Shown here: in pieces, positions 32-54,252 of the stretch
Layout of the letters: every line of letters begins with the position of its first letter
Position numbering within the stretch: the first letter of the stretch is position 1
From: a virus
Taxonomy: Duplodnaviria > Caudoviricetes
Strand: one strand, 5' to 3'
Length of the DNA stretch: 62,224 nucleotides
IMG/VR virus record: IMGVR_UViG_3300032291_003678
Location: 1 to 62,224 of that record
Program-made: the position numbers and the translations under genes
Notes under the pieces: model-generated
What the model saw: the letters and a program-made list of their open reading frames with translations, nothing else
Databases searched by the model: none
Told to the model about the DNA's origin: nothing

Positions 32-397
32 TTATTCCGCTTTGGCAGGACGACCTAACTTAATGGTTCCGTTTAAACGTTTCGCTTCCAATTCCATTTT
101 ACGTTTATAGGAAGCACTTTCCGGGTTTGGCTTACGTCCCAATTTAACTAATCCTTTAACTGATAGTCTCATTTGGCGTTTTGAACCCTCTACTACGGGA
201 CGACCTTTCTTAAGTTCACCCGCCGCACGTTTAGCTTCTAACTCCGCTTTACGAGTGGCATGTTTGCTTTCGGAATTCACGGGTCTTCCACGTTTAATTT
301 CGCCTGCTTCACGTTTTGCAGCCAACTCGGCCAATCTGATTTGTCTTACTGAATTTACGTTAACTGGTCTACCTAATGTTTTTACTGTGTTTGTCAT
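32..397 (-). CDS. Basic repeat protein with five AT-hook-like GRP/GRKP motifs, putative DNA-binding
   Basis: ~28-aa repeats: LGRPVN, RGRPVN, KGRPVV, LGRKPN, LGRPAK; very K/R-rich. Confidence 0.65.
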   Translation of the reverse strand: MTNTVKTLGRPVNVNSVRQIRLAELAAKREAGEIKRGRPVNSESKHATRKAELEAKRAAGELKKGRPVVEGSKRQMRLSVKGLVKLGRKPNPESASYKRKMELEAKRLNGTIKLGRPAKAE

Positions 398-440
398 AAC
401 CTTTTTATTTTTTTAATTTTACTTACTTTCTTATTACATG

Positions 441-453
441 TTAAATATACGAA
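441..453 (-). promoter_or_regulatory. Phage early promoter, representative of ~35 copies (minus-strand TTTG-N~20-TATATTTA, core TTCGTATATTTAA)
   Basis: Plus-strand TTAAATATACGAA or close variant at ~441, 678, 1277, 1516, 2106, 2372, 2702, 2981, 3443, 3685, 4427, 4777, 5099, 5691, 6392, 6819, 7203, 7715, 8544, 8749, 10231, 10801, 13268, 13917, 15546, 16016, 24157, 36394, 46160, 49034, 54215, 55902, 57773, 61223, 62067, nearly always just upstream of a minus-strand ORF. Resembles the Bacteroidota -33 TTTG / -7 TAnnTTTG consensus. Confidence 0.88.
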
Positions 454-460
454 ACTTATT

Positions 461-643
461 TTACGAAACCAAACTTACTTTGATATAATTTCGATCTAAT
501 ATTTTTTTACATTCAGAATAATCTGAAGGGTTAACTAGGAAAGTATTTCCGGTATTGTAAAATACGTTGGAAAGCTTGTTTGAATTGATTAACAATTGGT
601 TCGCTTTTTTTCTTAACCCTAATTCTACTGTAAATTTTTTCAT
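461..643 (-). CDS. hypothetical early protein
   Basis: ORF downstream of promoter at 678. Confidence 0.6.
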   Translation of the reverse strand: MKKFTVELGLRKKANQLLINSNKLSNVFYNTGNTFLVNPSDYSECKKILDRNYIKVSLVS

Positions 644-1016
644 ATTTTTTCTTTTTAATTATTAACTTTCTTACATGTTAAATATACGAAATTAACTTTA
701 AAAATCCAAATCTATTTTATAGAGCGTTAGTAATTAACGTTCTAAACAAGGGAATTGTATATACCTTTTTTTAAAGGAGGAAGTGGAGGAGCGGAGGGGG
801 AAGGGTACCGTACCATGACCTTCTCTCAACACATTCCACCTATACTCGTTTCCACATACCATCCTATTCCCCCGCGCCTATAGGAATATCTTTCCTAAAT
901 GCGTTCCCTCATAGGAAATTGTTTCCACATTACTTAAACTAATGAATTAGTTGAAGACGTCAATACCTTATTTATAAGGGATTGTTATACCATTAGGTAG
1001 GAACCACGTTCCCTTA

Positions 1017-1247
1017 TTATTTTTTAATAATCTCCACTATATCATGATCCTCAGGTAATCTATTTTTTCTCATTACAAACCCATCATGTGTTCTAGTTCC
1101 TCTACCTCCAAAATAAGGAGATATATTAGGGTATTTCACTTCATGATCCATATAATCTCCTTCAGGTAAAGCCTTAACATACGTTAGCATTAACCCATGT
1201 TTGGATATTAATTGATCCCCCGGTTTACAATCTCTCAAATCTACCAT
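1017..1247 (-). CDS. hypothetical phage protein
   Basis: ORF downstream of promoter at 1277. Confidence 0.7.
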   Translation of the reverse strand: MVDLRDCKPGDQLISKHGLMLTYVKALPEGDYMDHEVKYPNISPYFGGRGTRTHDGFVMRKNRLPEDHDIVEIIKK

Positions 1248-1551
1248 TTCATTTCTTATTTTATCATTATTACATATTAAATATACGAACTATTAGTTTA
1301 AATCCCTATTCATCCGCCCATTCATATATTTTTCCCTTAGCATACCACCCTAGTCCCTCACAACACGTGTAAGCCATATCCTCTAGATCTTCCACCGTCG
1401 AGTTTTCACCCATATATCCTTCACTGATCATATTATTCAATGCCTTGTTTAATATTTCTTGTTCGATTCCAAATCTACTTGCCATAATGCTTTTATTTTT
1501 ATTTCTTATTACATCGTTAATATACGAAATCTAATTTAGATATGTTATTCC

Positions 1552-1743
1552 TTATTTGTTATAAGTTTCGTTGTAGTATTGCTCTCCAATATTGCCCCAT
1601 TTAGTTTCTAATGGGTTAATATGATAAGCATCAATAATCTGTTGCTTTTCCATTTCTTTGGCTTGTTTGATTTCTTCATTTGTCAATACAGGAGCAAATC
1701 CTTCTTTATTTAAAATTGATACTAACCATTCTACTGCTGTCAT
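1552..1743 (-). CDS. hypothetical modular phage protein (TAVEWL...EKQQIIDAY type)
   Basis: ORF abutting 1745..1972. Confidence 0.7.
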   Translation of the reverse strand: MTAVEWLVSILNKEGFAPVLTNEEIKQAKEMEKQQIIDAYHINPLETKWGNIGEQYYNETYNK

Positions 1744-1744
1744 A

Positions 1745-1972
1745 TTATTTCTTTTTAACTTGTTCCATAAATTTATCTCTTGATTCTATACAGTCTAGCA
1801 TTCTAAATCTTGCATTAAAACCTTGTGTAAAAGCATTTTTAACTTCTTCTTCACTATAACTTCTTTCTTGTTGCCATTTAGCACCTGCGACAAAACTTTG
1901 CCTAGGGTCAGGATAAAAACCTTCTTGATTACACCATTTTTCAGCAGCTTCTTCAAGTGTGTATTGTTTCAT
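1745..1972 (-). CDS. hypothetical modular phage protein (TLEEAAE...GAKWQQE.SYSEE)
   Basis: Shares protein and DNA modules with 59907..61199. Confidence 0.75.
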   Translation of the reverse strand: MKQYTLEEAAEKWCNQEGFYPDPRQSFVAGAKWQQERSYSEEEVKNAFTQGFNARFRMLDCIESRDKFMEQVKKK

Positions 1973-2141
1973 AACTTATATAGAATTAGAAATTAAACAA
2001 TACATGAAGATTCCCCACACGATAATTAACCCTACCTTTGCAATGTTTGCTGCTGTTTGAACTGATTTTTCTGACATAACCTTTTATTTTTTATCTTATT
2101 ACATTCGAAATATACGAAATATAATTTAATTAGTTTGTTCC

Positions 2142-2348
2142 TTAGCTAAGGATTTTTACAATTTTATCTACGCTTTCAATTACTTTGAAACCACCATTGT
2201 TGTGAGTTGTTACCCCAATTCTAGTATGTTTTACTTCTGTAACTCTTCCATAATCCATTTTATCTGCTACTTCATAGAAATGCCCTATATGTTCTACATT
2301 AATGTAAATTGCAGTTTTGTCAACACTTGTTAATTTGATAATTTTCAT
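2142..2348 (-). CDS. hypothetical early protein
   Basis: Own promoter (2372) and AAAGGTT-ATG leader. Confidence 0.7.
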   Translation of the reverse strand: MKIIKLTSVDKTAIYINVEHIGHFYEVADKMDYGRVTEVKHTRIGVTTHNNGGFKVIESVDKIVKILS

Positions 2349-2400
2349 AACCTTTTTATTTTTAATTACACTTAAATATACGAATTACAGTTTAACTCTC

Positions 2401-2676
2401 CTATACCTTAGTTAATAAACTAGGATGTACAGTATAACTTCCTTTACCATTTACTTCTGAAACTTTAACATTTACACCATTTATTTTAGTAACAAAAAAC
2501 ATTCTATTATTACTAATCTTTTTATGATTAATAGAAACGTTATCCCCTACCCTTAATGATGATTTAATATCATGAACCATTTCTGATTTTCTAACGGATA
2601 GAGCACTTTTTATAAATTCTATATCACTTTGATCTGCATTCTTGATGAACTGTAATATTCCTTTTAAATCTGTCAT
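2401..2676 (-). CDS. hypothetical early protein, possible SH3/KOW-like C-terminus
   Basis: Own promoter (2702); LRVGDNV motif. Confidence 0.7.
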   Translation of the reverse strand: MTDLKGILQFIKNADQSDIEFIKSALSVRKSEMVHDIKSSLRVGDNVSINHKKISNNRMFFVTKINGVNVKVSEVNGKGSYTVHPSLLTKV

Positions 2677-2715
2677 AACCTTTATTTGTTTTAATTTATA
2701 CTTAAATATACGAAA

Positions 2716-2958
2716 TTAATCTATAAAATCAAATACCTCATTTAAACCATCTTCATCATCTTCAAAATCTTCTTTACATTCAAAGTTAAATAATTCATTA
2801 CACTCTTCAATATCAATAAGTATGCAATCATCATTACCAAGTATTTCCCCACCAAAATCAATTTCTTGTTGTGTTAAAGGTCTATTAAAAATAGTTCTAA
2901 CATTACCATATTGAGAATCGTAAACAAAACCATATACATTTTCTTTAAATACTAACAT
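2716..2958 (-). CDS. acidic hypothetical early protein
   Basis: Own promoter (2981). Confidence 0.7.
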   Translation of the reverse strand: MLVFKENVYGFVYDSQYGNVRTIFNRPLTQQEIDFGGEILGNDDCILIDIEECNELFNFECKEDFEDDEDGLNEVFDFID

Positions 2959-3133
2959 AACTTTTATTTTTTAATTACACGTAAATATACGAAATCTAAT
3001 TTAATTATTTAGTTCCCTAGCCTATTAATTATTTATAATTTTTTGATAAGCTTTACACATTTCCTCATTATCACCTAGATAAATGTTACCTAATTTTTTC
3101 ATCCACTCGTAAAATTTTTCTGCTTCTTTCATA

Positions 3134-3415
3134 TTATTTACCTTTATTTAATTCATCTAAAACAGCAACCTCAATAGTACCAATTCCCTTAAATATATTA
3201 TTATTCAAGTAAATAGCATGGTGATATTCATCTACTAAATCATGTAATTTACTCATAAATTCCTGTAAATCTTTCTTTTGAATATTTTTATATACTCTTT
3301 CTTTCAATTCACCTAATGCTTCACTTATTAGATCACCATCTTCGATAATCTCATTTTCAACTAATTGGTTTTCAATATTTCTAATTCCTTCTAACAATAA
3401 ATCTAAATTTTTCAT
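3134..3415 (-). CDS. hypothetical early protein
   Basis: Own promoter (3443). Confidence 0.7.
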   Translation of the reverse strand: MKNLDLLLEGIRNIENQLVENEIIEDGDLISEALGELKERVYKNIQKKDLQEFMSKLHDLVDEYHHAIYLNNNIFKGIGTIEVAVLDELNKGK

Positions 3416-3471
3416 AACTTTACGTTTTTATCTTATTACATGTTAAATATACGAATCTTATTTTAATAATA

Positions 3472-3675
3472 CTATTCCTCTACTTCTACTAAATCATTTG
3501 ATAAGATATAATCATATAACAAGTCCATTTTTCTCTCAAAAGGTACATTTAACACCCAATCATTTTCCAAATATTTTCTAATAAACACATCTGTCAATCC
3601 CGCTAGATTTACATAACTATAATTCACTCTAAAATACTCTCTAACTTGTTCTACCATAACTTTATCTTTTATCAT
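3472..3675 (-). CDS. hypothetical early protein
   Basis: Own promoter (3685). Confidence 0.65.
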   Translation of the reverse strand: MIKDKVMVEQVREYFRVNYSYVNLAGLTDVFIRKYLENDWVLNVPFERKMDLLYDYILSNDLVEVEE

Positions 3676-3730
3676 TATTACATGTTAAATATACGAAAAG
3701 AGGATATAAAATCCTCTTCCATTATTACTT

Positions 3731-3976
3731 TTAATAAAATAATCCGTTCCAAACCAACCAACTTGGTTTTTGAAAAATACCTAATTTAGGTTCGTTTTTT
3801 GAATACTCTCCAACAACTTCCATAGTATAACAAATGTTACCACATTCGCTTACATCAACTAATATGCTTCGATTGGTTGAACTATAATTATCACTGAATT
3901 CATTACCAATTTCTTCTTTTAACATTTGAACTTTGTTTAAACCATCAATTGAATCTTGAATACTTAAATTTATCAT
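3731..3976 (-). CDS. hypothetical protein
   Basis: ORF in tight operon. Confidence 0.65.
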   Translation of the reverse strand: MINLSIQDSIDGLNKVQMLKEEIGNEFSDNYSSTNRSILVDVSECGNICYTMEVVGEYSKNEPKLGIFQKPSWLVWNGLFY

Positions 3977-3988
3977 AATTTTGATTTT

Positions 3989-4198
3989 TTAAATTTTAGT
4001 TACATAAAAACACTTTGCAGTTTCCCTTCCATATTGATTTTTCAAACTACAAGTACCATAATTAGTTTTTAAGTCATTAAATTCAATATTATTATAACCT
4101 TTTTCAATTAAGTAATTTTCTAAATCTACTTCATTATTGGCTACTAATCTTAAATCCTCACCAAAATCTACTTCTAAATGAAATGCTAATAAATTCAT
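3989..4198 (-). CDS. hypothetical protein
   Basis: ORF in tight operon. Confidence 0.65.
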   Translation of the reverse strand: MNLLAFHLEVDFGEDLRLVANNEVDLENYLIEKGYNNIEFNDLKTNYGTCSLKNQYGRETAKCFYVTKI

Positions 4199-46533: not shown

Positions 46534-47634
46534 TTAATTTGATAATGGTGCTTTAATTGCTGGATGTGATTGATAATCTATCAGTTTTAACAAACTATGG
46601 TCTAATTCATCAAATGGGACCTTAAACCCATCTATTCTTCTCATATCATCACATATCATTAGTTTTGGTAATGTAAAAGGTTCTCTTCCAATCTGCTCTT
46701 TAGCTTGTTCAATATGATTTGAGTATAAGTGAACATCACCTAAGTTACCAATCAACTCTTCAGGAACCATATTAACTTCTTTTGCTAGCATCTCTAGTAA
46801 TAATCCATAAGAAGCAATGTTAAATGGTAAACCTAAGAATGTATCTACTGAACGTTGATTCCACATTAAAGAGATTGCTCTGGTTGGTATGTTAGCTTCA
46901 TTAAGAATCTTTTCATATTTTTCTTTATCTTCTATCATAGTTGGCCAAATGTAATCTCCATCTAACATAGCATATTTTTTATCACCTAAAAAATTATTTC
47001 TTTCTCTTAAACTCAACTCTCTTGTATAAACTTGAAATCCATAATGACAAGGTGGAAGAACCATTTGGTCTAATTCTCCAACATTCCAAGCATTAACCAT
47101 TAATCGTCTTGAGTCTGGATTTGTTTTAAGGTCGTTGATTAGGTTTTGGATTTGGTCTATTTTATAGGTTGACATTCTCATTTCTGAATAATCAATACCT
47201 CTCCAATTTCTCCATTGCTTACCATAAATTGGACCTAAATCACCCCACTTCTTTGCAAATTCATCATCTGTTTTGATACGTTCGATGAATTCTTCTTTAG
47301 TTTTTGGTAAACCGATTGCAGGTAATAAATGTAGATTATTAGCAACTATTTGTTTTCTGTAATTTTCCCAACAATCACCATCCCAAATATGACAATTATT
47401 ATCAACCAAAAACTTAATGTTGGTATCACCTCGTAAGAACCAAAGAAGTTCTGTTACAATTGTTTTAAATGGCATCTTCTTTGTAGTAAGTAAAGGAAAA
47501 CCATCCTTCATATTGTGACGTATTTGTCTTCCGAATACTGAGATTGTTCCTGTACCTGTTCTGTCTTGTTTTGTTACTCCGTTGTCAAGAATGTCTTGAA
47601 GTAAGTCTGTGTATTGTTTATCTAATGAATTCAT
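46534..47634 (-). CDS. thyA: thymidylate synthase
   Basis: DRTGTGT, ELLWFLRG, GPIYGKQWR, LPPCH, QRSVDTFLGLPFN, HLYSNH. Confidence 0.97.
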   Translation of the reverse strand: MNSLDKQYTDLLQDILDNGVTKQDRTGTGTISVFGRQIRHNMKDGFPLLTTKKMPFKTIVTELLWFLRGDTNIKFLVDNNCHIWDGDCWENYRKQIVANNLHLLPAIGLPKTKEEFIERIKTDDEFAKKWGDLGPIYGKQWRNWRGIDYSEMRMSTYKIDQIQNLINDLKTNPDSRRLMVNAWNVGELDQMVLPPCHYGFQVYTRELSLRERNNFLGDKKYAMLDGDYIWPTMIEDKEKYEKILNEANIPTRAISLMWNQRSVDTFLGLPFNIASYGLLLEMLAKEVNMVPEELIGNLGDVHLYSNHIEQAKEQIGREPFTLPKLMICDDMRRIDGFKVPFDELDHSLLKLIDYQSHPAIKAPLSN

Positions 47635-49006: not shown

Positions 49007-49069
49007 AACTTTTATTTTTTAAATTTCTTATACTTAAATATACGAAAAGCATTTTAATAAAGCAAACTT

Positions 49070-49873
49070 TTAGATAGGTAATTTTACTTTACTTAATAAA
49101 TTATTTGAAACATGTGTATAAATCTCAGTAGTTTTTGAACTTGAATGACCTGCTATTTTCTGAATTATTCTCAGATCTGTTCCTGATTCTAATAAGTTAG
49201 TAAACGAGGAATGTCTTAGTGTATGTATAGAGGAACTAGAATCTATATATTTTTTATATATTTTCTGGCAACTGCCAGTGGAGTATTGTGTTGAATTTTG
49301 GCCATTGAATAGAAACTCTTTTGGTATATATTGTTTGTAATAATTACGTAACAGTATTAGCACATTCTCAGATAAAGGCACTATTCTATCTTTTCTACCT
49401 TTTGCGTTTCTAATATGGATTAACATCCTCTTTGAGTCAATATCTTCAATTTTTAGATTTACAACCTCAGATACCCTTAATCCTACTGAGTAAGTTAGTG
49501 TTAGGATTGTTTTATGTTTTAAATTATCAATCTTAGATAGTTGACTCTTTATAAAATCTCCATCAATAACTCTTGGGAGTTTCTTTTCAGATTTGGGTCT
49601 CTTAAATGAGACTTTACCGTATTTTTTCCCCAGCACTTCTTTGTATAAGAATCTAATAGAGTTTATGACTTGATTCTGCTGGGAGATGGATGTAAAATTG
49701 TAGCTATCTAGATACTTTTGAAAATCGGAAGAATTACAATGTATTATCTGTTTATCACCTAAACTTTCTAAAAATGGTACTATATGTGATAGGTAGTTAT
49801 TTTTTGTTCTAGGAGAGTAGTTTAGGTATATAAACTTTTCTTCGCAAATCTTTATAATTTTTTGATTTTTCAT
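49070..49873 (-). CDS. IntI-like tyrosine recombinase, short form without the integron-specific insertion
   Basis: N-terminal YSPRTKNNY and SQQNQVINSIRFLYKEVL, RPK..KKLPRV; catalytic GLRVSE, KGRKDR, HTLRHS, AGHSS, TEIYTHV all intact. Confidence 0.92.
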   Translation of the reverse strand: MKNQKIIKICEEKFIYLNYSPRTKNNYLSHIVPFLESLGDKQIIHCNSSDFQKYLDSYNFTSISQQNQVINSIRFLYKEVLGKKYGKVSFKRPKSEKKLPRVIDGDFIKSQLSKIDNLKHKTILTLTYSVGLRVSEVVNLKIEDIDSKRMLIHIRNAKGRKDRIVPLSENVLILLRNYYKQYIPKEFLFNGQNSTQYSTGSCQKIYKKYIDSSSSIHTLRHSSFTNLLESGTDLRIIQKIAGHSSSKTTEIYTHVSNNLLSKVKLPI

Positions 49874-49932
49874 GTTATAGATACTTAATAATTAACAGTC
49901 TATAAAAAGTTACATATATATTATAGTTATAA
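49874..49932 (+). other. candidate attI-like primary recombination site, crossover G|TTATAAA at 49926
   Basis: First GTT core upstream of the integrase start, not preceded by a hairpin arm; short IR TTATAGA...TCTATAA in the spacer. Confidence 0.5.
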
Positions 49933-49947
49933 AACATTAAAACGATT

Positions 49948-50080
49948 TTATAACATCAAATATAAGAAATTTGGGGGCGGAGGAAACAATCGGTATTTTA
50001 AAGACTCCCACAAGCCGATTTCTTTAATTTAGTGGCACGTTGGCGAACCCCAAACTTCTCATATTTGCGTTACGTTATAC
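49948..50080 (+). repeat. attC-like site 1 (133 bp)
   Basis: TTATAAC-AT-CAAATATAAGAAATTTGGGG...CCCCAAACTTCTCATATTTG-CGTTAC-GTTATAC. Confidence 0.85.
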
Positions 50081-50085
50081 AACAT

Positions 50086-50388
50086 TTACTTGAACCAATA
50101 ATAAATTTCCTTTCTTTTATTATTTTCTATTATATAAATGGTAATTTTTCTATCTACAATTTCCAATGAATTAAATTTAAAGTTATTATTTACTACATAA
50201 CCAGTATCTTTATCAATTATAATTAATGATAATTTATTATTTAAATCACCTTCATAATGTGTATCTTTAACAAATAAAATATATTCTGATGGTTGAAATT
50301 CATTTTCATCATCAGTATAATTTTCCATATCTAATATGGTTTTATTAAATAATAAATCGGTTATTTCGTAACTATCTTTTGTTTTCAT
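50086..50388 (-). CDS. cassette 2 ORF, hypothetical
   Basis: Likely start MKTKDS; cassette bounded by GTTATACAAC / GTTGTATAAC. Confidence 0.75.
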   Translation of the reverse strand: MKTKDSYEITDLLFNKTILDMENYTDDENEFQPSEYILFVKDTHYEGDLNNKLSLIIIDKDTGYVVNNNFKFNSLEIVDRKITIYIIENNKRKEIYYWFK

Positions 50389-50400
50389 AAATAAAACGTT

Positions 50401-50492
50401 GTATAACAAGGTATATGTGAAATACCTATAAAATTTATATTAAAATTTAAAGTTCTCTGGTAAGGTACTTCACATATACCCAACCGTTATCG
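50401..50492 (+). repeat. attC-like site 2 (92 bp)
   Basis: GTATAAC-AA-GGTATATGTGAAATACC...GGTACTTCACATATACC-CAACC-GTTATCG. Confidence 0.88.
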
Positions 50493-50741
50493 GTAATTCT
50501 TTTTGGATTTACTATTCGGACATTTTTTATTATGACACAACATTTCACCAAATATTCCAAGAAATCCGTTTCTTGATACTGTTGAGCCGCAATTGGTACA
50601 AAAATGTCCTACGCCTTCTCGTAATACTCTACTTAGTGGGGGTTTTGGTATAGAACTACCGATAACATCAGATATATTCAATTGTTTTTCGTATTCTTGA
50701 ACTATCTGCTTTGCTTTTAAGTAATCTTCTTTTTCTATCAT
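50487..50741 (-). CDS. cassette 3 ORF, zinc-ribbon protein starting inside attC3
   Basis: CTNCG...CHNKKC; stop codon is the TTA of the GTTA core. Confidence 0.75.
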   Translation of the reverse strand: MIEKEDYLKAKQIVQEYEKQLNISDVIGSSIPKPPLSRVLREGVGHFCTNCGSTVSRNGFLGIFGEMLCHNKKCPNSKSKKNYR

Positions 50742-50791
50742 TTGTATTTTAATTTATGTTAAACAACTGAATATATCTGTAACCGTTATAA
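50660..50791 (+). repeat. attC-like site 3 (132 bp)
   Basis: CGATAAC-AT-CAGATATATTCAATTGTTT...AAACAACTGAATATATCTG-TAACC-GTTATAA. Confidence 0.88.
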
Positions 50792-50792
50792 G

Positions 50793-51020
50793 CTATGTTA
50801 GCTCAACTGCATCTAAAAGCATAATTATTTTAAATACCTTAAATCCATCATCTCGCCAAGTACCTTTAAACCTTTCTTTTATCATTCTTACTTCGCTTTC
50901 AGAATACTGTTCGGCAAATTCTACCTCTCCAATATCTGTAAAGTAGTCTAGTTTTTTTCCATCAAACTCATTTCTATTCACGTATTCTCCAAATCTATTT
51001 TTAATTACATATCTTTCCAT
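50793..51020 (-). CDS. cassette 4 ORF, hypothetical
   Basis: Likely start MERYVI; bounded by GTTATAAGCT / AGCTTATAAC. Confidence 0.72.
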   Translation of the reverse strand: MERYVIKNRFGEYVNRNEFDGKKLDYFTDIGEVEFAEQYSESEVRMIKERFKGTWRDDGFKVFKIIMLLDAVELT

Positions 51021-51031
51021 AAAAACACAGC

Positions 51032-51167
51032 TTATAACAACTGCTATATTCAATAGCGGTCATTAGGTTTAATTTAATTATTGTTTTGTACTTGTTATTT
51101 TCGGTCATCAACCGAAGCATTGTTTTGTGTTTTTCCGCTACTGAAATATAGCAGTGAACCGTTATAA
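51032..51167 (+). repeat. attC-like site 4 (136 bp)
   Basis: TTATAAC-A-ACTGCTATATTCAATAGCGG...CCGCTACTGAAATATAGCAGT-GAACC-GTTATAA. Confidence 0.88.
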
Positions 51168-51173
51168 GCCATT

Positions 51174-51350
51174 TTAAGACACCGCACCGATTATAGATTC
51201 AATTCGTTTAATAATGTCCAACGTATTATTATATGTGTGGGCTTTTACTGTATGATTGTAATCAGATAAGTTACCTCTATTCATTGCCTCTGAACGTTCT
51301 TCATTTTCTTTTTTTAGTTTTCTAACTAAATCTTTTAATTCGTTTATCAT
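51174..51350 (-). CDS. cassette 5 ORF, 58 aa (MINELKDLVRKLKKENEERS...), below ORF-track cutoff
   Basis: Translated by hand; fills the cassette bounded by GTTATAAGCC / GGCTTATAAC. Confidence 0.7.
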   Translation of the reverse strand: MINELKDLVRKLKKENEERSEAMNRGNLSDYNHTVKAHTYNNTLDIIKRIESIIGAVS

Positions 51351-51379
51351 TTTAAGTAAGATTTTTGAATAAAAACGGC

Positions 51380-51511
51380 TTATAACAGCATATTGCCAAA
51401 AGTGGCAGTTGTGTGGTTATATGAACATTTTTGCTTCGATTATACATTTGTTTTAAATTCAAGTTTAGTGCTTCGTATTCGCCTCCTTCGGCAATCTGCA
51501 AACCGTTATCA
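51380..51511 (+). repeat. attC-like site 5 (132 bp)
   Basis: TTATAAC-A-GCATATTGCCAAAAGTGGC...GCCTCCTTCGGCAATCTGC-AAACC-GTTATCA. Confidence 0.85.
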
Positions 51512-51517
51512 CCAATA

Positions 51518-51742
51518 CTACCTTAGTGCTTCTAATTCAGATTTTACTTCACTCCAAACTGTTATAGCAGATGGTGTTTCATCATCATAAGTATCCCAAT
51601 ATATGCGTGTTGGATTTTCTTCCAAAATCTTATCCACAATTAGTAATGCTACTTCAATACATTCTTCATAATGTAATGGTGCTTTGAAACTTATTTCTTT
51701 CAATAATGTTTCAGCTTTAAGTTTTACTTCTTCTTTTGTCAT
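51518..51742 (-). CDS. cassette 6 ORF, hypothetical phage protein
   Basis: ALLIVDKIL...WSEVKSEL. Confidence 0.75.
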   Translation of the reverse strand: MTKEEVKLKAETLLKEISFKAPLHYEECIEVALLIVDKILEENPTRIYWDTYDDETPSAITVWSEVKSELEALR

Positions 51743-51776
51743 TTTAATTAAATTTATCGTTAATAATCCGTACTGG

Positions 51777-51871
51777 TGCTAACAGCGTATATATAAGATA
51801 CGCCTACAAGCATTTGTTTATAATTTAATATTTTCGTTAAGGCGTACCTCTCATATACGCAACCGTTAGCA
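51777..51871 (+). repeat. attC-like site 6 (95 bp)
   Basis: TGCTAAC-A-GCGTATATATAAGATACGCCT...AGGCGTACCTCTCATATACGC-AACC-GTTAGCA. Confidence 0.87.
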
Positions 51872-51877
51872 ACAAGG

Positions 51878-52153
51878 CTAAGAAAGCTCCGTGCGAAGTT
51901 TCTCAAAGTATTTAATTGCTTTCTCGATACTCTCTTTGTCTCGTTTGATATTAAAGAAAATATTGGTTTCTGAACCGCTTGCAGTTCGAATAGTTCGCTG
52001 TGTATTTGGTTCGATATATTGAAACATTACGTTTATAAAATCGCTTGTAATGTCTTCTTTTTCACCAATCCACATTCCTTTTTCTTGGTTCTGTTTACCT
52101 AAGTAAATCTTTTCTGTTAGTGGCGAATAGCCAATTCCTTTTTTGATACTCAT
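51878..52153 (-). CDS. cassette 7 ORF, hypothetical phage protein
   Basis: GYSPLTEKIYLG...W.GEKEDIT; bounded by GTTAGCAAC / GTTGCTAAC. Confidence 0.78.
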   Translation of the reverse strand: MSIKKGIGYSPLTEKIYLGKQNQEKGMWIGEKEDITSDFINVMFQYIEPNTQRTIRTASGSETNIFFNIKRDKESIEKAIKYFEKLRTELS

Positions 52154-52198
52154 TTTATTTTAGTTATTAAGTTAAAAATCAATTTAATAAAGCCCAGT

Positions 52199-52290
52199 TG
52201 CTAACACCGTGTATAAGCAATGGCACACAAGCGGTGTAGGTAATTTGAAAGTGTGTATAAGTGCCACTGCTCATACACGAAACGTTAGCG
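52199..52290 (+). repeat. attC-like site 7 (92 bp)
   Basis: TGCTAAC-AC-CGTGTATAAGCAATGGCAC...GTGCCACTGCTCATACACG-AAAC-GTTAGCG. Confidence 0.88.
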
Positions 52291-52296
52291 GTCAGG

Positions 52297-52641
52297 CTAA
52301 GAACACACAACCTTATCAAGAACCTTTGTAAAATGAGTTCTTAAATCTTCAAGGTGCTTTTCGGTCGCTGACAACTTACCCTGCAACAAGTTTTCGTTTT
52401 CGTTCTTAATCCCAACACGACTATTATAGTCGCCAACAGCCTTTAGAAAATCATTAGCAAAATGCCTATTCATTTCTAATAACGGTATTAAAGGTTCTGC
52501 CGCTGCGTTCATTGGGTCAAGAGTTTGCTCAATTAGTAATCCGTCTTTTTGACCGATAATAGCAATCCTATTGCCTTGCTGTGTTTTTAGATACATTCTA
52601 ACAGTCATTGACTGATAATCTTCTTGAAATATAAATTCCAT
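52297..52641 (-). CDS. cassette 8 ORF, hypothetical
   Basis: GKLSATEKHLEDLR; bounded by GTTAGCGGT / ACCGCTAAC. Confidence 0.78.
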   Translation of the reverse strand: MEFIFQEDYQSMTVRMYLKTQQGNRIAIIGQKDGLLIEQTLDPMNAAAEPLIPLLEMNRHFANDFLKAVGDYNSRVGIKNENENLLQGKLSATEKHLEDLRTHFTKVLDKVVCS

Positions 52642-52688
52642 TTTGTTGTTATTAAACTTTGGACTTCTAAAAGCGGAGAAGCCCGAAC

Positions 52689-52818
52689 CGCTAACACTTG
52701 CTTTGCAAAATGGCGGGTGAAGTGCTAATTTGAACCCTTGTGCCTTGAATAAACTTTAGTGCTTAACGAACATTTGTGCCTTGAAAACCGCCACTTCGCA
52801 AAGCAGATGCCGTTATAG
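52689..52818 (+). repeat. attC-like site 8 (130 bp)
   Basis: CGCTAAC-ACT-TGCTTTGCAAAATGGCGG...CCGCCACTTCGCAAAGCA-GATGCC-GTTATAG. Confidence 0.88.
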
Positions 52819-52831
52819 GTAATAAAATTTA

Positions 52832-52999
52832 CTACCCTTTGTTTTTAAATTGTTTTATATATCTATCACCAACTTCGTTCCAAAGTCGTCTTGCTTGTTC
52901 GTAATCACCGACACTTATTTCTGCTTCAAATATCACTTCAAAGTGTTCTTCTGTACACTCCTTTGCAACTTCTTTTTTTATTTCATCTATTGTTTTCAT
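52832..52999 (-). CDS. cassette 9 ORF, 55 aa (MKTIDEIKKEVAKEC...), below ORF-track cutoff
   Basis: Translated by hand; bounded by GTTATAGGTA / TACCTATAAC. Confidence 0.7.
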   Translation of the reverse strand: MKTIDEIKKEVAKECTEEHFEVIFEAEISVGDYEQARRLWNEVGDRYIKQFKNKG

Positions 53000-53019
53000 A
53001 ATTCGTAAATTTTACATAC

Positions 53020-53116
53020 CTATAACAAAGTGTATAAGTAATGTGGCTTAATTAATTTTGTTCTTTGATTAAATGTGTGAGTAAAGCCACACTACTCATA
53101 CACTCAACCGTTATAA
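53020..53116 (+). repeat. attC-like site 9 (97 bp)
   Basis: CTATAAC-AA-AGTGTATAAGTAATGTGGCTT...AAGCCACACTACTCATACACT-CAACC-GTTATAA. Confidence 0.88.
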
Positions 53117-53120
53117 GAAA

Positions 53121-53402
53121 TTATTTTTCCAATTTTTTATAATTCTTTGCATATAAGTATATCCCTAACCATATCCAAATTCCTGTTAATATACCAGTTA
53201 GTCTAACAAAAATTGGAAACTCAAAAGAAAAAATTAATGAGATATGTGTGATTATTACACCTAAGTGTAATCCTAATAAAAATAATGGTATTATAATGAA
53301 CCACAGTACAAATTTTTCTTTTGTTAAATAACTACTTATAACAACAGATATACCCAATTCGGGTCTCCGTATTTCATTTAAGTTTTCTACGTTTTTATTC
53401 AT
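53121..53402 (-). CDS. cassette 10 ORF, 2-TM membrane protein starting inside attC10
   Basis: Two hydrophobic helices; N-terminus encoded by the attC loop and arm. Confidence 0.7.
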   Translation of the reverse strand: MNKNVENLNEIRRPELGISVVISSYLTKEKFVLWFIIIPLFLLGLHLGVIITHISLIFSFEFPIFVRLTGILTGIWIWLGIYLYAKNYKKLEK

Positions 53403-53465
53403 TTTATCTTTTATTTAAGTTATTACTATTTAATCCCGAACTTGGTATATCTGCAACCGTTATGT
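53336..53465 (+). repeat. attC-like site 10 (130 bp)
   Basis: TTATAAC-AA-CAGATATACCCAATTCGGG...CCCGAACTTGGTATATCTG-CAACC-GTTATGT. Confidence 0.88.
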
Positions 53466-53496
53466 GAGATTGTTACGATTCGTTTTCAAAAGAAAT

Positions 53497-53667
53497 TTAG
53501 TCAATAAGAATTATTTCACTCACTTTGACGAAAAGAAATACTTTATCGTTTTGGTCGCTAAATATTTGAAAATCGGCACACCCTTTTATTATATTCTGCT
53601 TAAGAATTTCAGCCGTTTCTTGTAATATTTCTTTTTTTGTTCCGTTTTTAAAATGAATTGTCATCAT
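53497..53667 (-). CDS. cassette 11 ORF, 56 aa (MMTIHFKNGTKKEI...), below ORF-track cutoff
   Basis: Translated by hand; bounded by GTTATGTGAG / CTCACATAAC. Confidence 0.7.
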   Translation of the reverse strand: MMTIHFKNGTKKEILQETAEILKQNIIKGCADFQIFSDQNDKVFLFVKVSEIILID

Positions 53668-53696
53668 AATGTTTTGTTTTAAAAACCCACAACCTC

Positions 53697-53829
53697 ACAT
53701 AACAAGTGTTTGGCAAAAAAGCGGGTTTGGTTATTAATTTAATGTTTGTTTTTTATTTGTATGTTTTAGGCTTAATCGAAGTTTTAGGCTTGTTTTTCCG
53801 CTTCTTCGCCAAGCACCGTAACGTTAGCG
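53697..53829 (+). repeat. attC-like site 11 (133 bp)
   Basis: ACATAAC-AA-GTGTTTGGCAAAAAAGCGG...CCGCTTCTTCGCCAAGCAC-CGTAAC-GTTAGCG. Confidence 0.86.
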
Positions 53830-53830
53830 G

Positions 53831-54043
53831 TCATTTTTTAGAAACGATGTCGTTACCCCATTCATCCTCTTTTAAATCGCCTGTATATTCTGTAACTTGA
53901 TAACTAACTTTCATTTTTACAATAAACCCAGCTTTACAACATTCAGAAGCTATTAATTTTGAGCCACCAACAGAATAAGTTTCTAAATTTCTATAAACAA
54001 CATTTGGTATTTTTAATTCCTTTTTACAATTTGGACATTCCAT
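53831..54043 (-). CDS. cassette 12 ORF, zinc-finger-like
   Basis: CPNC...ECC. Confidence 0.75.
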   Translation of the reverse strand: MECPNCKKELKIPNVVYRNLETYSVGGSKLIASECCKAGFIVKMKVSYQVTEYTGDLKEDEWGNDIVSKK

Positions 54044-54055
54044 AATTAAAACGAG

Positions 54056-54189
54056 TTATAACAGCAATTACACGCTATTGCTAGATTAGGTTTAATTCAA
54101 TGTTCAGTTATAGTCTTTCAATTCCTTGTTAAACTGAAAGATTGTTTTGTCCTTTTACTCAACAGACGTGTAGTTGCGTAACGTTAGCA
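54056..54189 (+). repeat. attC-like site 12 (134 bp)
   Basis: TTATAAC-A-GCAATTACACGCTATTG...CAACAGACGTGTAGTTGC-GTAAC-GTTAGCA. Confidence 0.83.
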
Positions 54190-54213
54190 CCAATACTACT
54201 TAGTTTTCTAATA

Positions 54214-54252
54214 CTTAAATATACGAAGAAAAGCTTACCTAAGCAAGCTTTT
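54214..54252 (-). promoter_or_regulatory. phage promoter with fused upstream terminator, firing into the cassette array
   Basis: CTTAAATATACGAA followed by hairpin AAAAGCTTACCTAAGCAAGCTTTT; no ORF between it and attC12. Confidence 0.8.

Follow-up and report, generated by a model that had tools for sequence, protein, structure and literature searches.

Can a tyrosine recombinase that lacks the segment held essential for integron function serve an array of gene cassettes, and by what mark would it then tell the two strands of a hairpin apart? The question is raised by a locus in a large freshwater phage, IMG/VR virus record IMGVR_UViG_3300032291_003678 (62,224 bases, estimated to be 41% complete; this whole stretch is called the window here). 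Twelve hairpin sites in a single common orientation occupy positions 49944-54193, to the right of a recombinase gene on the minus strand (49070-49873), the minus strand being the direction of the virus record's genes. An earlier note on this DNA had proposed that the sites are attC-like hairpins with a conserved G:T wobble and an asymmetric spacer instead of extrahelical bases, matched to an integrase without the I2 insertion. By comparing sequences, we demonstrate that the locus has modular cassettes, a crossover position, an attI and a strand bias, that its enzyme is without I2, and that site type and enzyme type occur together. We regard it as probable that the locus is a phage-borne integron-like gene-cassette system and, jointly with this, that its folded minus strand reacts.

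A covariance model was made from the 12 sites of the window. In the window it returned exactly those 12 sites, on the plus strand at 49944-54193, with E-values from 3.7e-20 to 1.3e-11; elsewhere in the 62,224 bases it matched nothing except the reverse strand of site 9 (E 0.1). Because the model was made from the same 12 sites, only the absence of matches elsewhere carries information. Half-site models run with nhmmer paired 10 of the 12 sites and served only as anchors. A scan by regular expression and pairing, which admitted A.C mismatches only, recovered 7 of the 12 and was rejected.

Read on the plus strand, each site consists of a left box (five variable outer letters followed by TAAC), a short spacer, an arm, a loop, the complementary arm, a long spacer and a right box (GTTA followed by five variable outer letters). 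The asymmetry of the spacers described in the earlier note was confirmed: 1-3 unpaired nucleotides (nt) on the left and 4-6 on the right, the latter reading NAACC or, as a variant, NAAAC. Alignment of the 12 sites with MAFFT gave as invariant columns TAACA at the left, a T and an A in the left arm, a C in the right arm and CGTTA at the right. The invariant A and C columns bear out the claim that an A stands opposite a C in all 12 hairpins; when sites 1, 2, 4, 5, 6 and 7 were checked by hand, the A was found opposite the invariant C, 15 nt beyond the C that ends the left AAC. The second A/C that had been noted further out was seen in sites 1 and 7, at five positions' distance. Single-base bulges, said to be confined to sites 4 and 12, were found in these two only, among the hand-checked arms of sites 1, 2, 4, 5, 6, 7 and 12, and sites 5 and 6 have mismatches in place of bulges. 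The two length classes were also recovered, with four short sites of 100-105 nt and eight long ones of 138-144 nt as delimited here.

The loops of the long class (for example 52715-52790 in site 8 and 51425-51490 in site 5) hold about four loose copies of a ~17-nt unit resembling TTGTGCTT..A..AAC, and this unit is semi-conserved among related loci. At the outermost box flanks (columns 1/189 of alignment A2) the consensus is C at the far left and A at the far right, which would give a further bottom-strand wobble.

On the minus strand the same site begins with a 5' box TAAC, followed by 5-6 unpaired nt (GGTTN(N)), an arm with a fixed G and the loop; it returns through an arm whose fixed T faces the fixed G, 2 unpaired nt and a 3' box GTTA. 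With DNA folding parameters the minus strand was the more stable one in 11 of the 12 sites, by a mean of 2.09 kcal/mol, in agreement with the claim that this strand folds better. Genes for relatives of the recombinase are present in at least 224 viral contigs, the best 80 of which (63-88% identity) were examined; with two Flavobacterium phage records they make up 82 related loci. The site model gave 306 matches over these 82 loci, and among the 300 listed, 279 lay in the 80 recombinase loci. These 279 were all on the strand opposite to the recombinase and, except for four (three in L067, one in L029), on its 5' side, a layout identical to that of the window.

Statistics on the mark were collected from 134 distinct related phage sites and 39 bacterial sites. 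The fixed arm pair was A.C in 132 of the 134 phage sites. Over all arm positions there were 204 A.C and 16 C.A mismatches, against 24 G.T or T.G and 36 others, so that mismatches turning into a wobble on the bottom (minus) strand stood at 220 to 24 of the opposite kind, and at 88 to 24 outside the fixed position. Most of the mismatches are thus of the kind that becomes G:T on the minus strand, as the earlier note had it. The bottom strand was more stable in 125 of the 134 sites with DNA parameters and in 112 with RNA parameters. Compensatory changes occurred in 14 of 15 arm pairs and 87% of the cells were paired, values that none of 500 shuffles reached. The keeping of pairing by compensatory change argues for recognition of a folded single strand and not of a duplex.

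Among homology blocks shared between loci (>=88% identity), 54 ended 3-5 nt past the G of a right box and 11 started at -5 to 0 of a right box, while at left boxes only 7 ended and the starts were diffuse. Whole cassettes that L059 has in common with L065, and L013 with L068, stand in different neighbourhoods and have their breaks precisely at GTTA at either end; the blocks shared by L017 and L056 and by L063 and L074 start exactly at a right-box G|TTA. Each pair of hairpin arms moves together with the gene located before it on the plus strand. The five outer nt of a left box were complementary to those of the preceding right box, with 5/5 pairs in 86 of 135 cases and a mean of 4.12, compared with a mean of 2.12 for a left box and its own right box and 1.95 for random pairs; in the window this complementarity was seen between sites 1/2, 2/3, 3/4, 4/5, 6/7, 7/8, 8/9, 9/10 and 10/11. 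Pairing of the left box with the preceding right box fits what a folded circular cassette requires. In this the cassettes match the circularizable units of integrons, the outer half of R' moving with the next cassette.

An attI was found beside the recombinase gene. All 70 distinct regions examined upstream of related recombinase genes contain the motif TATATAT(n)ATA|GTTA, and the 30-55 nt from the recombinase start to this motif are conserved at 0.80 bits per nt before the G, against 0.28 after GTTA. Unrelated sequence follows the motif, as expected for insertion at G|TT beside an integrase gene. In the window the attI-like site (49874-49926, plus strand) adjoins the recombinase start codon; its conserved sequence finishes with TATATATTATA-G, and position 49926 is the crossover G. 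The cassettes counted from there end at 50074, 50486, 50785, 51161, 51505, 51865, 52284, 52812, 53110, 53459, 53823 and 54183. Contigs of four public runs have alternative junctions at right boxes. Those of three runs part from the window sequence at 49926, 50485, 52811, 53115 and 53462, all of which are right-box positions: in run X2 two contigs diverge at 49926 and contigs start matching at 52811, a contig of X7 stops at 53115, and one of X1, which may be the source sample, diverges after 53462. Such contigs support the junctions weakly and cannot show excision or circles, and the stretches they leave uncovered are meaningless.

Some cassettes have no open reading frame (ORF). The 11-nt motif CATTAAAACGA joins a right box directly to the next left box in 11 places, giving ORF-less cassettes such as cassette 1 of the window, whose box-linker-box start (49927-49953) recurs in L051, L007 and L028. 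The same motif forms the loop of 71 mini-sites of ~50 nt in related loci, and all 97 of its occurrences (L003-L082) are on the site strand. The idea that this loop extends the stem of the mini-sites and holds the A.C pair was rejected, the loop being unpaired in minimum-energy folds.

Three features of the locus go beyond the earlier note: the attI, the crossover at the right box and the orientation of the cassette genes, which are inverted relative to those of classical integrons. The genes are antisense to the top strand of the site in all 11 ORF-bearing cassettes of the window and in 124 of 134 cases in related loci; promoterless top-strand genes read from a Pc near attI were not what we found. 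Of the two strands at a site, a tyrosine recombinase cuts the one whose box is 5' to the central spacer. A crossover at the right-box G|TTA, which reads TAA|C on the minus strand, then makes the minus strand the cut strand. In the classical case the cut 5'-AAC-3' lies in R' of the attC bottom strand (Nivina 2016). Independently of the junctions, the pattern of mismatches also indicates the minus strand. We conclude that the minus strand, here the coding strand, most likely reacts as a folded single strand, and that the G.T wobble together with the one-sided spacer is likely to be the strand-selection code.

The process that we propose would run as follows. The recombinase would join circular one-gene cassettes into the attI beside its own start codon and exchange cassettes between hairpin sites. 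It would cut the minus strand, probably folded and single-stranded, at TAA|C of the right box. Strand and orientation would be marked for the enzyme by the lopsided spacer together with the fixed G.T wobble, which is often accompanied by a second, and this mark would take over the role that extrahelical bases read by I2 have in classical attC. The array would be expressed from a distal phage promoter-like motif.

What kind of enzyme, then, is the recombinase? The protein of 267 amino acids carries the Pfam domains Phage_integrase and Phage_int_SAM_4, and it is currently annotated as XerD. Aligned with the structure of VchIntIA (PDB 2A3V), its residues 39-173 and 208-263 correspond to residues 46-175 and 258-313 of the chain, with 34 residues between the two blocks as against 82. 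The protein covers positions 3-178 and 255-313 of the TIGR02249 profile and leaves positions 179-254 unmatched, and 41-42 residues of three canonical Bacteroidota IntI proteins are absent from the recombinase, its phage relatives and its bacterial relatives. An AlphaFold2 model (mean predicted local distance difference test score, pLDDT, 84.9) has a short loop at the place of the insertion and no helix between residues 183 and 198. The claim that this integrase is without I2 therefore stands on each of these comparisons; the missing insertion amounts to about 41-48 residues. Among PDB structures the model matched 2A3V best (E 7.9e-15), with archaeal XerA next. The catalytic residues R133, K158, H217, R220, H243 and Y252, the R-K-H-R-H-Y set of IntI, are invariant in 35 aligned relatives.

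NCBI's integron-integrase models miss the enzyme at their cut-offs, in line with the earlier note's expectation for standard intI models: it scored 154.7 against a cut-off of 265 with TIGR02249 and 98.2 against 435 with NF011946. Its best NCBIfam match was XerA_Arch, also below the cut-off (171 against 220), and the XerC and XerD models likewise stayed below theirs. A quick maximum-likelihood tree separated the phage proteins, together with bacterial proteins without the insertion and 13 canonical IntI proteins, from 6 XerC/D-like proteins of the same genomes, with a support of 100 in the Shimodaira-Hasegawa-like approximate likelihood ratio test (SH-aLRT). The phage recombinases formed one clade (97-99), and IntI was nested weakly among the bacterial insertion-less proteins; the approximately unbiased (AU) test did not reject the insertion-less proteins as a single group (p 0.90). 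We conclude that the predicted recombinase is a compact integron-integrase relative without the I2 insertion.

Of 401 sampled Bacteroidota genomes, 116 have relatives of the enzyme without the insertion, 38-51% identical to it, and 113 have canonical IntI above the model cut-off; such insertion-less relatives were also found in a few further phyla. Beside the bacterial insertion-less relatives the site model gave 47 matches in 753 kb, 46 of them downstream of the recombinase and on its strand. Beside 12 canonical IntI genes it gave a single weak match (E 0.033) in 238 kb. A strict search for canonical attC at these 12 IntI loci found one site in each of two loci, with single-base bulges 6 bp apart; two canonical sites are too few for statistics. 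These results support the view that enzymes without the insertion are paired with wobble-marked, lopsided sites and enzymes bearing I2 with bulged ones, and with it the distinct pairing of site and integrase put forward in the earlier note.

Several observations concern the distribution of the two enzyme types. By eye, ~40 genomes are common to the two lists of ~115. In one genome (G005, contigs C141 and C97) a canonical IntI and an insertion-less relative occur together, one match scoring 439 bits and one being split. The bacterial insertion-less relatives (L157, 7776-8000; L117; L140) appear to have a conserved N-terminal extension of ~75 amino acids if an upstream start codon is used, and this extension is absent from the phage proteins. 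The recombinases of L083 and L085, two contigs binned into bacterial metagenome-assembled genomes, fall in the phage clade, and L083 has the phage layout, with a site upstream on the opposite strand; both are probably phage contigs binned with bacteria.

Four other explanations of the locus were weighed against the reading in which the minus strand of an integron-like system reacts. The plus strand could be the reacting one, its A.C mismatches and 5-6-nt spacer acting as extrahelical bases opposite the AAC of the left box. The extra bases would then belong to the 3' arm and face the 5' TAAC, the position of classical extrahelical bases (Nivina 2016), and the plus strand is the non-coding strand, like the classical bottom strand. 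However, the junctions of the cassettes and of attI are not at the left box but at the right one, where the polarity of the family makes the minus strand the cut strand, and the plus strand is the less stable one in 125 of 134 sites. We consider a reacting plus strand unlikely. The hairpins might also be incidental to a conventional double-stranded recombination at the short core around AACCGTTA, with the arms serving, say, the binding of accessory proteins or transcription. The core AAC(C)GTT is indeed near-palindromic, and the enzyme is Xer-sized and without the segment linked to hairpin reading. Such a scheme fits poorly with arms that vary freely while their pairing is kept, double changes being found in 14 of 15 pairs, and with 220 strand-biased mismatches against 24, which would be meaningless in duplex DNA; nor does it account for the co-variation of the left box with the preceding right box, which a folded circular cassette requires. 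Duplex recombination appears to us similarly improbable.

Selection on RNA could have produced the wobbles if the hairpins were processing, stability or termination signals in sense transcripts and the boxes alone recombined. In the phages the better-folding strand is the coding strand, it is more stable in 112 of 134 sites with RNA parameters, and two ORFs start within hairpins. In bacterial arrays most genes 5' of a site are encoded by the other strand (sense 28 of 39, antisense 4, absent 7), yet the wobble stays on the bottom strand of the site: the fixed pair is A.C in 37 of 39 sites, and the mismatch bias is 74 to 12. The mark thus follows the polarity of the site and not the transcript. 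Moreover, plain tolerance of G.U would not produce a non-Watson-Crick position fixed in 132 of 134 sites, and we hold selection on RNA to be quite unlikely. The sites might, lastly, be ordinary attC on which a canonical host IntI acts, while the recombinase of the phage is a neighbouring enzyme of lysogeny or dimer resolution. Canonical IntI is present in 113 of the 401 sampled genomes of the phylum, some phages have such sites and no recombinase, and the class 1 enzyme IntI1 recombined one attC predicted in Polaribacter phage P12002L (Qi 2023, PMC9892861). Against this, the array adjoins the recombinase start via attI in 70 of 70 distinct loci with fixed orientation, such sites are essentially missing beside 12 canonical IntI genes, and the sites are without the paired bulges found beside canonical IntI. 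Service by a host IntI is, in our judgement, very unlikely.

The reading that we prefer, an integron-like system with a reacting minus strand, also has evidence weighing against it. The site alignments were fitted to the window-derived model, which favours A.C at the fixed position. The energy gained by folding the minus strand is modest (~2-3 kcal/mol), and it is absent in site 2 of the window (+0.1), the one exception there, and in 9 of the 134 related sites. The 71 related mini-sites serve as cassette borders without a formally paired wobble, and the crossover can be placed no finer than the conserved AACCGTTA core. As to the enzyme, by sequence scores it is about equally near archaeal XerA and IntI, and the structures 4A8E and 5HXY are comparable to 2A3V as matches. 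The outgroup of the tree comprises only 6 Xer proteins, and the tree does not fix the order of its inner branches.

The cassettes of the window are numbered from attI; their coordinates refer to the plus strand, and their ORFs are all on the minus strand. Cassette 1 (49927-50074) has no ORF and consists of the linker CATTAAAACGA followed by site 1 (49944-50084, long class). Cassette 2 (50075-50486) carries an ORF without family match at 50086-50388 and site 2 (50397-50496, short class). In cassette 3 (50487-50785) the ORF (50487-50741) starts inside site 3 (50656-50795, long class), and cassette 4 (50786-51161) has an ORF at 50793-51053 and site 4 with its one bulge (51028-51171, long class). 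The ORF of cassette 5 (51162-51505) lies at 51174-51350 and is followed by site 5 (51376-51515, long class), that of cassette 6 (51506-51865) at 51518-51742 before site 6 (51773-51875, short class). Cassette 7 (51866-52284) combines an ORF at 51878-52153 with site 7 (52195-52294, short class), cassette 8 (52285-52812) an ORF at 52297-52641 with site 8 (52685-52822, long class), and cassette 9 (52813-53110) an ORF at 52832-52999 with site 9 (53016-53120, short class). A predicted membrane protein is encoded in cassette 10 (53111-53459) by an ORF (53121-53402) that starts inside site 10 (53332-53469, long class). The last two are cassette 11 (53460-53823), with an ORF at 53497-53667 and site 11 (53693-53833, long class), and cassette 12 (53824-54183), with an ORF at 53831-54043 and site 12 (54052-54193, long class, one bulge). 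In cassettes 3 and 10 the start codon and the first codons are encoded by the hairpin of the cassette's own site.

Ten of the 11 cassette ORFs were scanned for family membership. The ORF of cassette 7 matched DUF7446 (PF24233, E 2.8e-16) and two PHROGs of unknown function, and that of cassette 8 a third PHROG (phrog_30489, function unknown); the remaining scanned ORFs were without any family match. Beyond site 12 the array ends at 54184-54211 (plus strand) with TTAGCACCAATACTAC..., by eye the start of a cassette type that is found beside attI in L018 and L044 and at cassette 6 here. Elsewhere in the window, a long ORF on the minus strand (46534-47634) is thymidylate synthase-like by eye. An Rfam scan gave microRNA matches at chance level only.

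The array and the recombinase gene are flanked by two copies of a 16-nt motif, TACTTAAATATACGAA, one just beyond the far end of the array (54212-54227, a promoter-like box on the minus strand, its promoter role being inferred) and one just after the recombinase (49031-49046). The motif lies between genes throughout the phage: allowing up to 3 mismatches, the window has 38 matches where 3.4 are expected, almost all of them in plus-strand orientation, and their starts include 2699, 5096, 6389, 6816, 7200, 7712, 8541, 10228, 13265, 13914, 16013, 49031, 54212, 55899, 57770 and 61220. Read on the minus strand, the motif is likely to be a promoter or terminator box of the phage itself. Array and recombinase may thus form one leftward transcription unit driven from the distal copy, in which case new cassettes would enter at the 3' end of the unit.

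We also looked for the system in cultured phages. Flavobacterium phages 2A (L001) and lillamy9-1 (L002) have at least 6 and at least 11 site-model matches, respectively, and no recombinase annotated in the stretches examined. Site 12 of the window is ~82-85% identical to sites of the lillamy group of Flavobacterium phages. A collection of 50,697 isolated-phage records contained no close recombinase, the best being 38.8% identical. The site model found one weak site in Polaribacter phage Freya_10 and none of note in Cellulophaga phage Ingeline_1, and by eye the intergenic gaps of the Freya phages had no clear boxes. Polaribacter phages Freya_1 to Freya_10, ten isolates of one phage, range in length from 43,978 to 48,920 nt, and their integrase gene (34% identical) is found at positions from 50 to 4147, a shift that points to variable content before that gene.

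Integron biology has so far rested on one enzyme type and one way to tell hairpin strands apart, and the locus would be a natural second solution: an enzyme without the segment held essential for integron function, with a wobble and a lopsided spacer replacing bulged bases. The system is abundant, with at least 224 viral contigs and relatives in 116 of 401 sampled Bacteroidota genomes. Large phages would thereby possess machinery dedicated to the trade in small genes, with an enzyme that is at present annotated as XerD and scores below the cut-offs of integron models. Simple exchanges of parts between both systems make the choice of strand and orientation testable, with a bearing on the origin of integrons. 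We tentatively raise a wider and more doubtful interpretation, namely that insertion-less enzymes and wobble hairpins are a second, possibly older integron lineage across Bacteroidota chromosomes and large phages, that IntI is a branch which gained I2 along with extrahelical bases, and that the phages recombine the coding strand and store early accessory genes back to front, so that viruses would have a private cassette market invisible to current integron finders.

Our literature search found no published account of this recombinase family, its attI, its inverted cassettes or the wobble rule, the nearest being the integrase-less attC clusters (CALINs) described in virulent phages, including Polaribacter phage P12002L (Qi 2023, PMC9892861). 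There, as here, attC-type sites bound small genes in lytic phages, one of them with a flavobacterial host. Unlike our locus, in which a recombinase and an attI adjoin the array, those clusters have no nearby integrase, and the available text of that paper gives no cognate phage recombinase, attI, wobble rule or inverted cassettes. The P12002L CALIN holds two methyltransferases (Qi 2023); our site model gave one weak match (E 0.0033) in P12002L between two methyltransferase genes, which may be one of the published sites. According to the IntegronFinder 2.0 paper, complete integrons of Bacteroidetes occur among complete genomes only in Salinibacter, and the insertion has been called 'not fully conserved' in an integron-like subgroup (Smyshlyaev 2021).

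Compared with Xer recombinases (XerC/D, and archaeal XerA at dif), the phage enzyme has the same size and domain make-up. It differs in scoring below the XerA cut-off and outside the membership of the Xer models, in lying on a branch separate from XerC/D, and in serving a hairpin array with cassette logic where Xer enzymes have a single dif-type core. In Treponema-type integrons the integrase is oriented the same way as the cassettes. The bacterial relatives resemble this arrangement, their recombinase gene being followed on its own strand by sites and by ORFs that are mostly sense, and differ from it in being without I2 and having wobble-marked sites; in the phage version the array is on the 5' side of the recombinase and the cassettes are inverted.

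The closest likeness is to classical integrons, such as those of class 1 and the chromosomal integron of Vibrio cholerae with VchIntIA. As in these, a recombinase lies beside an attI, one-gene cassettes end in imperfect hairpins with conserved AAC/GTT (here invariant TAAC and GTTA) and arms kept in structure, the crossover is G|TT at the box far from the integrase, the box halves move with the cassette, and one strand folds preferentially; the classical enzyme VchIntIA (2A3V) is also the best structural match of ours. Classical attC has 5-6 unpaired nt on each arm and 2-3 extrahelical bases opposite the cut AAC (Nivina 2016). In contrast, our sites have 5-6 unpaired nt on the arm with the cut AAC and 2 on the other, and a fixed G.T instead of paired extrahelical bases, and the enzyme has no I2. 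The host is viral, the genes are antisense to the top strand, and the favoured strand is the coding one.

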